Positions 27,922 to 32,336 of a stretch of DNA of 32,336 bases are shown piece after piece. The translations under genes were made by a program, and so were the position numbers. This DNA is from a virus. Its lineage: Duplodnaviria > Heunggongvirae > Uroviricota > Caudoviricetes > Peduoviridae. The stretch covers positions 1-32,336 of IMG/VR virus record IMGVR_UViG_2974787824_000001. One strand, written 5' to 3'. The notes under the pieces are model-generated. The model saw only the letters and a list, made by a program, of their open reading frames with translations. It did not search any database and was not told where the DNA came from. Positions within the stretch are counted from its first letter, which is position 1, and the number at the start of each line of letters is the position of its first letter.

Positions 27922-28193
27922 GTATTCGTATTGAAATTGGCGAACGTTATGTCGTTACCAGTGACAGCTTTCAGTTTATTCTCCACGAGAAAAAGAGAGC
28001 TGAAAGCGGTAAAAACGCCGGTCAGGAATGGCTGGCGGTGGTTGGTTATTACCCGAAATTAAGCCAGCTCGTTTCCGGCCTGATGCATCACGATATTCTG
28101 ACCGGAAGCGCAAAGTCTTTTGCTGATTTAAACGCGCAGGTTGAGCAACTCAGCAAGCGTTGTTCAGAGGCTTTTGGCTCATATGGCCGTTAA
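27918..28193 (+). CDS. Small early protein (P2 orf83-position)
   Basis: 91-aa ORF overlapping the previous stop; its stop overlaps the A start region. Confidence 0.6.
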   Translation: MSIRIEIGERYVVTSDSFQFILHEKKRAESGKNAGQEWLAVVGYYPKLSQLVSGLMHHDILTGSAKSFADLNAQVEQLSKRCSEAFGSYGR

Positions 28194-30489
28194 AGCCTCC
28201 GGGCGTTTTGTCCCTCCGTCAGCATTTGCCGCAGGCACCGGTGAGACGTTTACCGGTGCTTATGCATGGAACGCGCCACGCGAGGCCGTCGGGCGCGAAA
28301 GACCCCTTACACGTGACGAGATGCGTCAGGTGCAAGGTGTTTTATCCACGATTAATCGCCTGCCTTACTTTTTGCGCTCGCTGTTTACTTCACGCTATGA
28401 CTACATCCGGCGCAATAAAAGTCCGGTACACGGGGTTTATTTCCTCACATCCACTTTTCAGCGTCGTTTATGGCCGCGCATTGAGCGTGTGAATCAGCGC
28501 CATGAAATGAACACCGACGCGTCGTTACTGTTTCTGGCAGAGCGTGACCACTATGCGCGCCTGCCGGGAATGAATGACAAGGAGCTGAAAAAGTTTGCCG
28601 CCCGTATCTCATCGCAGCTTTTCATAATGTATGAGGAACTCTGCGATGCCTGGGTGGATGCGCATGGCGAGAAAGAATCGCTGTTTACGGATGAGGCGCA
28701 GGCTCACCTGTATGGTCATGTTGCTGGCGCTGCACGTGCTTTCAATATTTCCCCGCTCTACTGGAAAAAATACCGTAAAGGGCAGATGACCACGAGGCAG
28801 GCATATTCTGCCATTGCCCGTCTGTTTAACGATGAGTGGTGGACTCATCAGCTTAAAGGCCAGCGTATGCGCTGGCATGAGGCGTTACTGATTGCTGTCG
28901 GGGAGGTCAATAAAGACCGTTCTCCTTATGCCAGTAAACATGCCATTCGTGATGTGCGTGCGCGCCGCCAGGCAAATCTGGAATTTCTTAAATCGTGTGA
29001 CCTTGAAAACAAGGAAACCGGCGAGCGCATCGACCTTATCAGTAAGGTGATGGGCAGTATTTCTAATCCCGAAATTCGCCGGATGGAGCTGATGAACACC
29101 ATCGCCGGTATTGAGCGTTACGCTGCCGCAGAGGGTGATGTGGGGATGTTTATCACGCTGACCGCGCCGTCAAAGTATCACCCGACACGTCAGGTCAGAA
29201 AAGGCGAAAGTAAAACCGTCCAGCTAAATCACGGCTGGAATGATGAGGCATTTAATCCAAAGGATGCGCAGCGTTATCTCTGCCGTATCTGGAGCCTGAT
29301 GCGCACGGCATTCAAGGATAATGATTTACAAGCCTACGGTTTGCGTGTTGTTGAACCACACCACGACGGAACGCCGCACTGGCATATGATGCTTTTTTGT
29401 AATCCACGCCAGCGTAACCAGATTATTGAAATCATGCGTCGCTATGCGCTCAAAGAGGATGGCGACGAAAGAGGAGCCGCGCGAAACCGTTTTCAGGCAA
29501 AACACCTTAACCGGGGCGGTGCTGCGGGATATATCGCGAAATACATTTCAAAAAACATCGATGGCTATGCACTGGATGGTCAGCTCGATAACGACACCGG
29601 CAGGCCGCTGAAAGACACTGCCGCGGCTGTTACCGCATGGGCGTCAACGTGGCGCATTCCGCAATTTAAAACGGTTGGCCTGCCGACAATGGGGGCTTAC
29701 CGTGAACTACGCAAATTGCCTCGCGGCGTCAGCATTGCTGATGAGTTTGACGAACGCGTCGAGGCTGCACGCGCTGCCGCAGACAGTGGCGATTTTGCGC
29801 TGTATATCAGCGCGCAGGGTGGGGCAAATGTCCCGCGCGATTGTCAGACTGTCAGGGTCGCCCGTAGTCCGTCGGATGAAGTTAACGAGTACGAGGAAGA
29901 AGTCGAGAGAGTGGTCGGCATTTACGCGCCGCATCTCGGCGCGCGTCATATTCATATCACCAGAACGACGGACTGGCGCATTGTGCCGAAAGCTCCGGTC
30001 GTTGAGCCTTTGACTTTAAAAAGCGGCATCGCCGCGCCTCGGAGTCCTGTCAATAACTGTGGAAAGCTCACCGGTGGTGATACTTCGTTACCGGCTCCCA
30101 CACCTTCTGAACACGCCGCAGCAGTGCTTAATCTGGTTGATGACGGTGTTATCGAATGGAATGACCCGGAGGTCGTGAGGGCGCTCAGGGGCGCATTAAA
30201 ACACGGCCTGAGAACACCAAACCGTCAGCAAAGAAACGGAAGCCCGTTAAAACCGAATGAAATAGCGCCATCGGCCAGGCTGACCCGGTCGGAGCGTATG
30301 CAAATTACCCGTATCCGTGTTGACCTTGCTCAGAACGGCATCTGGCCTCAGCGATGGGAACTTGAGGCGCTGGCGCGTGGCGCGACCGTAAATTATGACG
30401 GGAAAAAATTCACGTATCCGGTCACTGATGAGTGGCCGGGATTCTCAACAGTAATGGAGTGGACATCATGGCAAAAATTCACGAGGTAA
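28183..30489 (+). CDS. A: Replication initiation protein A (rolling-circle HUH endonuclease, P2 gpA-like)
   Basis: Start at ATG 28183 (MAVKASGRF...) gives 768 aa; contains the HUH motif (GTPHWHMMLF) and a catalytic tyrosine cluster (GYIAKYISKN) typical of P2 A-type initiators. Confidence 0.92.
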   Translation: MAVKASGRFVPPSAFAAGTGETFTGAYAWNAPREAVGRERPLTRDEMRQVQGVLSTINRLPYFLRSLFTSRYDYIRRNKSPVHGVYFLTSTFQRRLWPRIERVNQRHEMNTDASLLFLAERDHYARLPGMNDKELKKFAARISSQLFIMYEELCDAWVDAHGEKESLFTDEAQAHLYGHVAGAARAFNISPLYWKKYRKGQMTTRQAYSAIARLFNDEWWTHQLKGQRMRWHEALLIAVGEVNKDRSPYASKHAIRDVRARRQANLEFLKSCDLENKETGERIDLISKVMGSISNPEIRRMELMNTIAGIERYAAAEGDVGMFITLTAPSKYHPTRQVRKGESKTVQLNHGWNDEAFNPKDAQRYLCRIWSLMRTAFKDNDLQAYGLRVVEPHHDGTPHWHMMLFCNPRQRNQIIEIMRRYALKEDGDERGAARNRFQAKHLNRGGAAGYIAKYISKNIDGYALDGQLDNDTGRPLKDTAAAVTAWASTWRIPQFKTVGLPTMGAYRELRKLPRGVSIADEFDERVEAARAAADSGDFALYISAQGGANVPRDCQTVRVARSPSDEVNEYEEEVERVVGIYAPHLGARHIHITRTTDWRIVPKAPVVEPLTLKSGIAAPRSPVNNCGKLTGGDTSLPAPTPSEHAAAVLNLVDDGVIEWNDPEVVRALRGALKHGLRTPNRQQRNGSPLKPNEIAPSARLTRSERMQITRIRVDLAQNGIWPQRWELEALARGATVNYDGKKFTYPVTDEWPGFSTVMEWTSWQKFTR

Positions 30490-30920
30490 AGCTGCACGCA
30501 AAATATTTCGACCTTGTGCTGGAAGGAAAGAAACGTGCAGAGTTTCGGAAAAATGACCGTAATTATGAGCGCGGGGACACGCTGATTTTGCATGAATGGG
30601 TGCAGGGTGTGTTTACGGGGCGAAAGGTTGAAGCCCGGGTAACAGATGTTACTGACCTGTCAGACTGGCTGGAAGATTATGTCTTGCTAAGTATTGAGCT
30701 GCTTAATACAAGCGCATATGAGATTGTGAACTGGAAAGAACTTAGTGAGCGTGGTCTGGTATTCAGAATTAATCATGAAATTATGCATCAGCTCGGCCTT
30801 GCTGTTATGTATGAACCAGAGACGGGGATGTCTGGCGGGGCAATGGTTGCCACGGATGGAGCATGGAACTATTCAGATGAACAGATTGAGAGTGCAAAGC
30901 AAAACGGGTGGCTTGGATAA
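30468..30920 (+). CDS. ASCH/PUA-like small protein (DUF3850-like; P2 orf91-position)
   Basis: Start at ATG 30468 (MAKIHEVKLHAKYFDLVLEGKKRAEFRKNDRNYERGDTLILHEW...); this N-terminal pattern matches what I recall of the ASCH-like DUF3850 family; overlaps the 3' end of A. Confidence 0.6.
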   Translation: MAKIHEVKLHAKYFDLVLEGKKRAEFRKNDRNYERGDTLILHEWVQGVFTGRKVEARVTDVTDLSDWLEDYVLLSIELLNTSAYEIVNWKELSERGLVFRINHEIMHQLGLAVMYEPETGMSGGAMVATDGAWNYSDEQIESAKQNGWLG

Positions 30921-31126
30921 TGCACGGAATACCAGGCGAGATACCGCAACATAACACTAAAAATATCAAGCTGATGGCTATTGTTCACCGTCTACAGCAG
31001 ATTATGGTCAACGAAAATCTGACGCCTGACGAGCTGGTCGGGTGTGCTGAAATAGTCCGGGATAATTACGGGCGGTTTAACTATATCGGTCAGTCCAGAG
31101 TTGCGCCACCACCACGCAGACGATAG
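30920..31126 (+). CDS. Small hypothetical protein
   Basis: 68-aa ORF whose ATG overlaps the preceding stop (ATGA), suggesting translational coupling; no recognisable motif. Confidence 0.4.
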   Translation: MHGIPGEIPQHNTKNIKLMAIVHRLQQIMVNENLTPDELVGCAEIVRDNYGRFNYIGQSRVAPPPRRR

Positions 31127-31199
31127 AGAACGCCGCCAGTCGTGAAACTTGTTTTCAGGGCTGGCGGGGTTGAACAACGAGCGAAGTGAGGCGTTAGCA

Positions 31200-32141
31200 T
31201 TAAGTTAATTTTAATGAATGGTACTCTATCGAGCTGATTGTAGATGCGATATATTTACGATCATTTACAGAGAGTATTGCCGCTAGTAGACGACATACCA
31301 GAGCCTGCATTTGTAGCAATATATCGCTACCATATTGACAATCATTGATACTAGAGAAACCAAGCGGTTGCCCATTAAAAATGGCTTCATGAAAATTATC
31401 ATTGCGTATAACTGAAACATTACATTCATCTGTTGCCCATGACGGGATTTTTACACCGTAATTTTCGCACATCCAATATACTCTATTTTGATGAGATGGT
31501 TTTTTCTCTTTAATGACTTTATCCCTTTCATCCCATGCTATAGCAAAACAGCAATCAAGAGCCATATAAAGATACTGGAATTTCTCAAAGGAAAGGTATA
31601 GTGGGTTATGTGATAGGAATAGGGAGTGTATCACCGCAGCTATTCTTTTAATGGAGCGATCATCTTTTTGTTTGTCTTTTATATAGTTAAGTGCTAGCTC
31701 TATTACTTCTTTTTCAGAGCATCCAACGAGAATAAAGTCAGTTAACTTAGTGGGCTTGATAGTGGTTGCATCAAGAAAACCAGCGTCAGTGGTTGTCAAT
31801 CTTATACCCTTGAAAAAAGAGAGGCACCACACAACAAAGTTGAGAGTTTCTAACGAGGATGTGTTTTTTAATTTTAGTGTGTGCGTTTTGGGCATGCCGA
31901 ATACTCGGTAACTATAAGGCATTGTGCATGTGTCACCATTAAGGTTATATACCTTTCGATTCCCAGGGTATATCCAACCATTAACAACGTTTTTATCATT
32001 GTTAATACGTTCCACTTTCTCAATAAGACCGGGTAAAGTACGCAAAGAAAATTGTTCAGTCTCAATGTTAACTTCTACTGGATAGTATCCAAACTCCGAA
32101 ATAATCTCATTTGGTTGCTGTTCATCAACTTCACCTTGCAT
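31200..32141 (-). CDS. Hypothetical protein; AT-rich cargo gene at the tin/old position - candidate anti-phage defence protein
   Basis: 313-aa leftward ORF next to the right genome end, where P2 carries tin and old. AT-rich with A/T-biased codons. No Walker A motif, so not an Old-type ATPase; no motif recognised by eye. Confidence 0.75.
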   Translation of the reverse strand: MQGEVDEQQPNEIISEFGYYPVEVNIETEQFSLRTLPGLIEKVERINNDKNVVNGWIYPGNRKVYNLNGDTCTMPYSYRVFGMPKTHTLKLKNTSSLETLNFVVWCLSFFKGIRLTTTDAGFLDATTIKPTKLTDFILVGCSEKEVIELALNYIKDKQKDDRSIKRIAAVIHSLFLSHNPLYLSFEKFQYLYMALDCCFAIAWDERDKVIKEKKPSHQNRVYWMCENYGVKIPSWATDECNVSVIRNDNFHEAIFNGQPLGFSSINDCQYGSDILLQMQALVCRLLAAILSVNDRKYIASTISSIEYHSLKLT

Positions 32142-32253
32142 AACTTTCTCCGTTCAAAAACAGGCACGATAATTCTCGTAAGCCTATCATGTTCGCAAAG
32201 TATCCATACCTGTGGATTTTGTAAATTTAAGTTGATTTGTCATTAAATAAGCC

Positions 32254-32265
32254 GTTGCATGCAAC
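32254..32265. promoter_or_regulatory. 12-bp perfect palindrome upstream of the 313-aa cargo gene (candidate operator)
   Basis: GTTGCATGCAAC is its own reverse complement; lies about 115 bp upstream of the cargo start on the minus strand, with a second TTGCATGC copy at 32278-32285. Confidence 0.3.
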
Positions 32266-32336
32266 AAGTGAATGTTTTTGCATGCGTCGGGGATGTCCGT
32301 TCAGGCTGCGTGCGGTCAGGACTGGTGCGGATCCAT

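Follow-up and report, generated by a model that had tools for sequence, protein, structure and literature searches.

The gpA-gpQ hotspot of P2-like phages, the region between the replication gene A and the portal gene Q, is among the best validated sources of anti-phage systems, and many defence systems have been shown experimentally to reside in it (Rousset 2022; 2026 preprint). About one fifth of the P2 elements carry only unannotated cargo at this place, and most of the unannotated cargo of the related P4 hotspot proved to be defensive once tested (2026 preprint). In P2 itself the slot holds old and tin, two non-essential exclusion genes that are expressed from the prophage and lie leftward on one shared mRNA (P2 annotation). 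Here we describe ORF313, a single gene found in the same slot of the IMG/VR virus record IMGVR_UViG_2974787824_000001 (Peduoviridae), which was analysed over its whole length of 32,336 nucleotides (hereafter the window). Within this window ORF313 provides the founding example of a family, large and uncharacterised, of predicted solo HEPN-domain proteins found in the tin/old hotspot of P2 and 186 relatives and on other mobile elements as well.

Several self-contained HEPN nucleases that act by abortive infection are known. HepS ('HEPN Solo'), from the Gifsy-1 prophage of Salmonella, is a tetramer that is triggered by a tail-tip protein and cleaves tRNA anticodons (PMC13043305). ApeA is a standalone defence protein with a C-terminal HEPN domain bearing the motif R-N-x3-H (Gao et al. 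2020; 10.64898/2026.01.26.701840). It has about 583 amino acids (aa) in three mostly helical domains, forms decamers or dodecamers and is activated by 5'-phosphorylated deoxydinucleotides in a pocket between its N-terminal and HEPN domains; mutation of the ligand-pocket residues H487 and R490 of Ec2ApeA abolishes ligand binding and defence (Juozapaitis et al. 10.64898/2026.01.26.701840). DARNA, a single-protein HEPN tRNA anticodon nuclease that causes abortive infection in response to an infection-specific cue (Puteikiene et al. 10.64898/2026.02.22.705581), is a dodecamer switched on by single-stranded DNA that the phage single-stranded DNA-binding protein presents (10.64898/2026.02.22.705581).

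The ORF313 protein is none of these three, given that the architectures differ and that homology to ApeA is not significant. The HepS family consists of standalone HEPN proteins of less than 250 aa with no extra domain, whereas ORF313 has 313 aa including an additional N-terminal region of 140 residues. DARNA (456 aa) is all-helical and combines an N-terminal HEPN domain with a C-terminal, Pds5-like domain for DNA sensing, and ApeA is much longer and mostly helical, unlike ORF313 with its beta-rich N-terminal region. The HEPN toxins RnlA/LsoA and those of the HepT type belong to two-gene toxin-antitoxin systems (RnlAB, HepT-MntA), whereas ORF313 comes without a second gene; no sequence similarity to either group was detected. 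With old-tin the likeness is one of place, that is the slot between orf91 and cos/Q, the leftward orientation and a candidate promoter abutting the cos-proximal backbone. Old combines an ABC-ATPase with a TOPRIM nuclease and Tin is an unrelated protein, whereas ORF313 has neither a Walker A motif nor detectable similarity to either of them.

Predicted HEPN domain of the ORF313 protein

ORF313 is a real gene under purifying selection, a statement based on a ratio of nonsynonymous to synonymous substitution rates (dN/dS) of 0.14-0.26 against five diverged alleles and on the existence of hundreds of homologs. The patches that evolve fast are residues 151-170, 201-240, 261-270 and 291-313. A reading of the letters made earlier without database searches (the sequence-only reading) had pointed to a leftward, AT-rich open reading frame (ORF) of 313 aa at the tin/old position, and the ORF list and the base composition bear it out: the GC content is 36.7% (31.5% at third codon positions), compared with 53.5% and 54.8%, respectively, in gene A and with 51.7% in the window as a whole.

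That reading also called the gene possibly undescribed, which holds for its function and not for its sequence, already deposited as ORF313 of P2-EC67 (AM157369; 87.7% nucleotide and 81.5% protein identity) and as PHROG 5937 (unknown function), which matches end to end with an E value of 8.5e-200. We take AM157369, from its GenBank record, to be the work of Odegrip et al. 2006 on this locus. Positions 30400-32336 are 100% identical to Yersinia phage VB-YPM-4 (ON146439), and the window is essentially this phage. The protein is identical to a hypothetical protein of VB-YPM-4 and to WP_001620979 from E. coli prophages. The gene is annotated as hypothetical in every record found, and neither P2-EC67 nor PHROG 5937 gives it a function; no function, domain or phenotype is recorded for it in the literature that could be searched or in the searchable part of the supplementary tables of Rousset 2022.

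The AlphaFold2 model of the protein is confident, with a mean predicted local distance difference test (pLDDT) of 84.5 and a predicted template modelling score (pTM) of 0.85, and it divides the chain into an N-terminal alpha/beta region and a C-terminal helical domain (Table 1). Two hallmarks of HEPN domains could be found in the latter: a helical bundle like that of solved HEPN domains, as judged from the model, and a conserved Rx4-6H motif, R246-N-D-N-F-H251, which lies on the predicted helix 242-256. R246-N247-x3-H251-E252 is invariant in an alignment of 38 sequences with 43-79% identity. Among 36 divergent members (24-48% identity) the R is kept in 35, the N in 33, and the H and the E (or D) in all 36. 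ORF313 is thus predicted to carry a HEPN ribonuclease domain, an assignment that rests on fold and motif because neither Foldseek nor the sequence profiles gave a significant result; HepS was likewise recognised by fold and motif (Sargen et al., Nature 2026, PMC13043305). A second Rx5H pattern (R166-H172) is incidental, R166 not being conserved.

Just before the putative catalytic helix, another helix carries the near-invariant motif H217-x2-R220-x2-W223, with H present in 35 and R in 33 of the 36 divergent sequences. H217 and R220 belong to a second near-invariant polar set (T86-H87, R114, D135, E186, H217, R220 and R284), and the invariant or nearly invariant positions of the N-terminal region include F17, G18, Y20, P21, W56, Y58, R79, T86, H87, R114 and D135. 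No significant structural neighbour was found for this region and, modelled alone, it folds poorly (pLDDT 62), which suggests that it packs against the HEPN domain and is not an independent domain.

The arrangement of the two motifs resembles that of ApeA, in which H487-x2-R490-x2-W493 stands just before R502-N-x3-H507 as H217-x2-R220-x2-W223 precedes R246-N-x3-H251 in ORF313. Full-length ApeA relatives (583 aa) were retrieved using the partial Ec2ApeA sequence available in the preprint supplement. The sole hhalign alignment obtained, which is not significant, pairs H217/R220/W223 and R246/N247/H251 with H487/R490/W493 and R502/N503/H507, so that H217/R220/W223 may correspond to the ligand-pocket residues of ApeA. 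We take this pairing as a lead and not as evidence of membership; ORF313 is not an ApeA, and neither the ApeA model of PADLOC nor Pfam HEPN_Apea matches the window protein. UniRef labels one homolog (P0092) as 'Apea-like HEPN domain-containing protein'.

Comparison with known families gave no other identity. Searches of the window protein in Pfam, PADLOC and NCBIfam found no matches, and neither did the comparison with DUF4238-type proteins that had been proposed from the letters (no Pfam match to this domain at E <= 1). Scans of the members of both alignments (38 and 36 sequences) gave nothing significant in Pfam and no hit at all in PADLOC. The earlier argument that the protein, lacking a Walker A motif, is not of the Old type was upheld, as no such motif and no AAA or TOPRIM match in Pfam could be detected and hhalign found no homology to P2 Old (P 0.57) or to Tin (P 0.79).

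Two weak profile matches can be mentioned. The profile of the divergent family, over residues 3-66 (~31944-32135), matched bacterial RyR-repeat domains (6ug5, 6uag, 3nrt and 4n05) with E values of 0.13-0.47 along the pattern 'FGYxP ... GWxY' (per-domain E 0.15-2). They are at chance level, without a supporting Pfam RyR match, and were not relied on. The profile of the 38 closer sequences, over residues 243-283, matched residues 4-44 of E. coli NrdB (ribonucleotide reductase R2) with an E value of 0.011, almost certainly by chance, the catalytic R and H being left unmatched.

The cassette, its slot and the distribution of the family

ORF313 follows gene A, an orf91-like gene and an orf92-like ORF, the P2 position of tin and old, and lies between A and the portal gene Q adjoining cos. 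The borders of the insertion could be located by comparison. On the left, megablast homology to the P2, Wphi and P24A7b-type backbones stops at 31197, 3 bases short of the stop codon; on the right, homology to the cos-proximal right ends of 186 and many 186-like phages starts at ~32250. The first ~70 bp of the region delimited in the sequence-only reading, which began at 31127, are therefore conserved P2-type backbone including a hairpin, and the cassette itself spans ~31198-32249. It contains ORF313, its Shine-Dalgarno sequence and ~108 bp of upstream DNA, with room for no other gene. Most P2-like phages have the same flanks without ORF313. The proposal that the tin/old slot holds a different single-gene cargo was upheld, and this cargo is horizontally acquired. 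The strand opposite to the early operon had been regarded as a distinctive trait, but P2 old and tin are leftward too and the orientation is normal at this locus.

Homologs with 49-100% identity are found between Q and A in 40 of the 43 IMG/VR loci compared. In all 40 the gene adjoins Q and cos, is separated from Q by ~430 bp and is convergent with A; on the side of A, further cargo intervenes in some loci. The slot is occupied on P2-type backbones (A 98% identical) and on 186-type backbones (A ~36% identical), and in prophages of both E. coli and Salmonella. Since the flanks are also shared by phages without the gene, the cargo at this junction does vary among related phages, and ORF313 behaves as hotspot cargo.

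An exhaustive profile search retrieved 646 clusters (at 50% identity) with E <= 1e-3, of which 191 reach E <= 1e-30; most are ~300 aa long and align over the full length. The family is large, with at least 646 such clusters, and uncharacterised. Full-length copies are present in 51 of 5,426 complete E. coli genomes (~1%), and the family also occurs in Salmonella, Klebsiella, Pseudomonas, Acinetobacter and Aeromonas, usually on mobile elements, including a few plasmids. We sampled six contexts: a Salmonella P2-like prophage (the gpA-gpQ slot), a P. aeruginosa island with a Gabija-like pair, DUF932 and ParB, an integrase/resolvase island of P. viridiflava, a Tn7-like element of Stenotrophomonas, a variable region of Acinetobacter beside toxin and Peptidase_M78 genes, and housekeeping genes in Aeromonas. 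The gene is solitary in every one and has no neighbour conserved among the six.

Two further phage types carry a homolog at other accessory positions. In one of them, a phage with a P22-type portal, it lies within the structural module. The other is a siphophage-like contig (L066, 5036-5725) in which genes for a CI-like repressor and for a DUF4145 protein immediately precede the homolog (42% identity). We presume DUF4145 to belong to the HEPN clan, in which case two putative HEPN accessory genes would be adjacent there; hhalign shows no relationship between the two proteins.

Proposed role and competing explanations

The reading that we favour, and consider fairly probable by analogy with the systems described above, is that ORF313 is a self-contained single-protein HEPN ribonuclease (RNase) carried as prophage hotspot cargo, which would exclude other phages by abortive infection. 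A single-gene anti-phage or abortive-infection protein was also what the sequence-only reading had proposed, and it appears the most plausible role because a predicted HEPN domain, solitary occurrence on mobile elements and a validated defence hotspot coincide here. Overall, that reading was partly confirmed.

As with old-tin in P2, a promoter at the hotspot's cos-proximal edge would drive synthesis of the protein in the lysogen. We propose that its own architecture would keep it inactive, because neither a partner nor an antitoxin would fit into the cassette. The HEPN domains of two subunits would pair and form a composite R246/H251 active site, with the N-terminal alpha/beta region packed against the HEPN domain. 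This region, together with the H217-x2-R220 helix and residues T86-H87, R114, D135, E186 and R284, may detect a signal of infection, which could be a phage protein or a ligand derived from nucleic acids. Activation would then lead to metal-independent RNA cleavage, most likely in tRNA anticodon loops by analogy to HepS, ApeA and DARNA, halting translation and the production of phages. RNase activity, dimerisation, autoinhibition, trigger, RNA target and anti-phage phenotype are all parts that we infer. One unannotated cargo family of the hotspot has thereby acquired a testable hypothesis, a solo HEPN RNase with R246 and H251 as catalytic residues and H87, H217 and R220 as candidate sensor residues. 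Should it be validated, the self-contained HEPN abortive-infection nucleases (HepS, ApeA and DARNA) would gain a compact single-gene member of 313 aa, and with it a small model for the coupling of sensing to HEPN activation.

Several observations weigh against this role. Foldseek of the model against the PDB gave no significant match, searches of PDB sequence profiles returned no HEPN protein, and Pfam scans of 74 members found nothing significant, the best match being HEPN_Apea (PF18739) with an E value of 0.15 in one divergent member. The hhalign comparison of the ORF313 family with ApeA gave a probability of 1-2% (P 0.021-0.057). Some HEPN domains are non-catalytic. The Aeromonas homolog has no obvious defence neighbours, and for every member of the family the anti-phage role is one that we infer. 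The hotspot also holds cargo that is not defensive, such as partition systems and a cytolethal distending toxin (Rousset 2022). Another putative HEPN gene from the P2 locus was tested in that study and, in the part of it that is searchable, is not among the three systems reported as defensive. Judged from the same part, its 'Putative HEPN' (pFR103) is a different and larger protein than ORF313.

In one of the other explanations the gene would act as a toxin or addiction module, serving to stabilise the prophage or another mobile element and not primarily as an anti-phage sensor, with a hidden neutraliser in the form of a cis-encoded RNA, a host factor or the N-terminal region of the protein itself. 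We find this unlikely: the cassette offers a single ORF with just ~108 bp of DNA upstream of it, neither relevant tandem repeats that could point to an RNA antitoxin or a structured RNA nor a credible RNA family were detected (the sole Rfam match is a yeast snoRNA far below threshold), and the absence of a conserved neighbour extends to all six contexts. The distinction from abortive infection is in part semantic, as many such toxins defend. We also hold it improbable that ORF313 is an RNA-processing, regulatory or lysogenic-conversion factor that acts on phage or host transcripts to the benefit of the phage life cycle or of host fitness, with no role in exclusion. The gene is dispensable and patchy, missing from most P2-like phages and from about 99 of each 100 complete E. 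coli genomes at full length, and it is also found outside phages on transposons, plasmids and islands; defence cargo is typically distributed in this way, a function in the phage life cycle is not.

A counter-defence protein, which would help the P2-like phage to infect by degrading a host immune RNA or signalling nucleotide as a nuclease, or by sequestering it as a binding protein, seems very unlikely. Homologs occur in chromosomal islands beside defence systems and in elements that are not phages, the leftward, lysogen-type placement fits old/tin and not the early lytic genes, and nothing points to a ring-nuclease fold. In a further explanation the HEPN-like domain would lack catalytic activity or would not be a genuine HEPN domain; the protein would then serve as a helical factor that binds a ligand or a protein, or would have another active site formed by the invariant H87, D135, E186 and H217. 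To this we give a small probability, and regard it as quite unlikely.

Within the HEPN nuclease reading, a more specific version is possible, if doubtful. ORF313 could be a HEPN nuclease in miniature that is gated by a ligand and is either a distant relative of ApeA or a case of convergence with it, and in which the H217-x2-R220-x2-W223 helix and the N-terminal T86-H87, R114 and D135 would form a small-molecule pocket that senses a nucleotide-derived product of infection and allosterically opens the R246/H251 RNase site. If true, Proteobacteria and several phage types would share a sensor-effector architecture that is both new and minimal. In an even more unusual variant, the invariant set of two His, one Glu and one Asp would be a second, metal-dependent catalytic or sensing site.

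Expression signals, cos-proximal DNA and other cargo

The coordinates of the gene, its signals and its neighbours are collected in Table 1.

Table 1 Features of the ORF313 locus and of its predicted protein (window coordinates)
Feature	Coordinates	Strand	Description
ORF313-family gene	31200..32141	minus	313 aa + stop codon; ATG at 32141-32139; from the ORF list
Foreign single-gene cassette	31198..32249 (approx.)	none	1,052 bp, GC 36.4%
N-terminal alpha/beta region, aa 1-142	31716..32141	minus	putative sensor/regulatory module
C-terminal helical HEPN-like domain, aa 143-313	31203..31715	minus	from the AlphaFold2 model
Predicted catalytic HEPN motif R246-N-D-N-F-H251-E252 (Rx4H)	31386..31406	minus	read from the sequence
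H217-x2-R220-x2-W223 motif	31473..31493	minus	near-invariant; helix before the predicted catalytic helix
Shine-Dalgarno GGAGA	32147..32151	minus	5 nt before ATG; annotated ribosome-binding site in AM157369; kept in cassettes of 69-100% identity
Best candidate cassette promoter	32216..32243	minus	-35 ATGACA, 16-nt spacer, -10 CAAAAT
Hairpin	31129..31171	none	inverted repeat I2; 19-bp arms, 84% complementary, 5-nt loop, GC-rich base; conserved backbone
Cos-proximal backbone element	32252..32290	none	palindrome 32254-32265 and a second GCATGC; inverted repeat I3; outside the cassette
Gene A	28141-30489	plus	replication gene, upstream of the ORF313 locus
orf91-like gene	30432-30920	plus	DUF3850/ASCH + DUF7415
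orf92-like ORF	30908-31126	plus	72 aa
Portal gene Q	163-1197	minus	start of the window

Alleles of 69-100% identity are inherited together with the stretch of ~108 bp upstream of the gene, whereas alleles of no more than 58% identity have unrelated DNA there. The candidate promoter inside it has 9 of 12 consensus matches and appears as TTGATA...CAAAAA(T) in cassettes of 74-79% identity; the number of such sites is not above the expectation from shuffled sequences. Where the early operon and ORF313 converge, their ends are separated by the hairpin, which lies in a region shared with other P2-like phages. It lacks a T-run and was not called as an intrinsic terminator by the scan; it may be a shared terminator, either bidirectional or factor-dependent.

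A perfect palindrome of 12 bp, GTTGCATGCAAC, is indeed present at 32254-32265, and the sequence-only reading had taken it as a sign of autonomous regulation of the gene. This part did not survive the comparison, since the palindrome belongs to the conserved cos-proximal backbone of P2, 186 and P4 and did not arrive with the cassette. Four phages without ORF313, namely 186, Midge, SW9 and EtG, all have its core, TGCATGCAAC...GTGCATG...TTTTGCATGCG, unchanged and ~45-130 bp from their right ends, which rules out an operator of the cargo. It is also retained next to cassettes with as little as 49-53% identity, P2 has it upstream of old, and the searchable part of Table S2 of Rousset 2022 shows it in P4 cos-proximal sequences. 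As a palindrome it is statistically unremarkable, with 19 of 100 shuffles giving at least one 12-mer match (with one mismatch at most).

In P2 (NC_001895, 33381-33593; L067, 4882-5094) the conserved element, GTTGCATTCAA, overlaps the expected -35 box of old-tin. The annotated starts of the old-tin transcript are 33424 and 33426, and the reverse complement of the element (TTGAAT) would fall at the expected -35 position, 17 nt from a TAAAAA -10. The regulatory reading is corrected accordingly, from an operator of the cargo to a conserved cos-proximal region. The element may serve packaging, a hotspot promoter or both, and the hotspot promoter may be made in part of backbone or packaging-region DNA, so that incoming cargo of any kind would get expressed.

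Positions 32250-32336 resemble the right ends of 186-type phages (Eganvirus) at ~77-81% blastn identity, a search that did not return P2, whereas gene A and the early region are of the P2 type at ~96-98% identity, so the backbone near cos may be mosaic. The cos core itself is missing from the window: in IMG/VR relatives such as L024, ~69 bp (...AGTATCTATGCAACTGCATTAAAACCGCCCCATGAAGCGGGCGGGCGAGGCGGGGAAAGCACTGCGCGC...) join the last and first bases of the window, and the P2 cos 19-mer was not found in the window even at 3 mismatches. The record was probably trimmed or linearised around the cohesive ends.

Other, unannotated cargo shares the slot with ORF313 alleles. In a Salmonella P2-like prophage (L016/L017, 9025-10176) a 199-aa protein and a 161-aa Peptidase_M78 protein (ImmA/IrrE-like) accompany the ORF313 allele, and in P2-EC67 (L001, 158-1087) ORF73 and ORF226 do; a Pfam scan of the 199-aa and 226-aa proteins gave no matches. 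Phage 186 has at the equivalent right-end position (L020) Orf97, annotated as 'expression from plasmid blocks 186 infection', which is another exclusion-type function at this locus. In the prophage of E. coli 2013C-4830 (L002, 4592-5820) the ORF313 copy is separated from the orf92-like gene by an inserted IS2 element, and the annotation gives gene A as a truncated pseudogene; this prophage may be decaying with its cargo gene retained.

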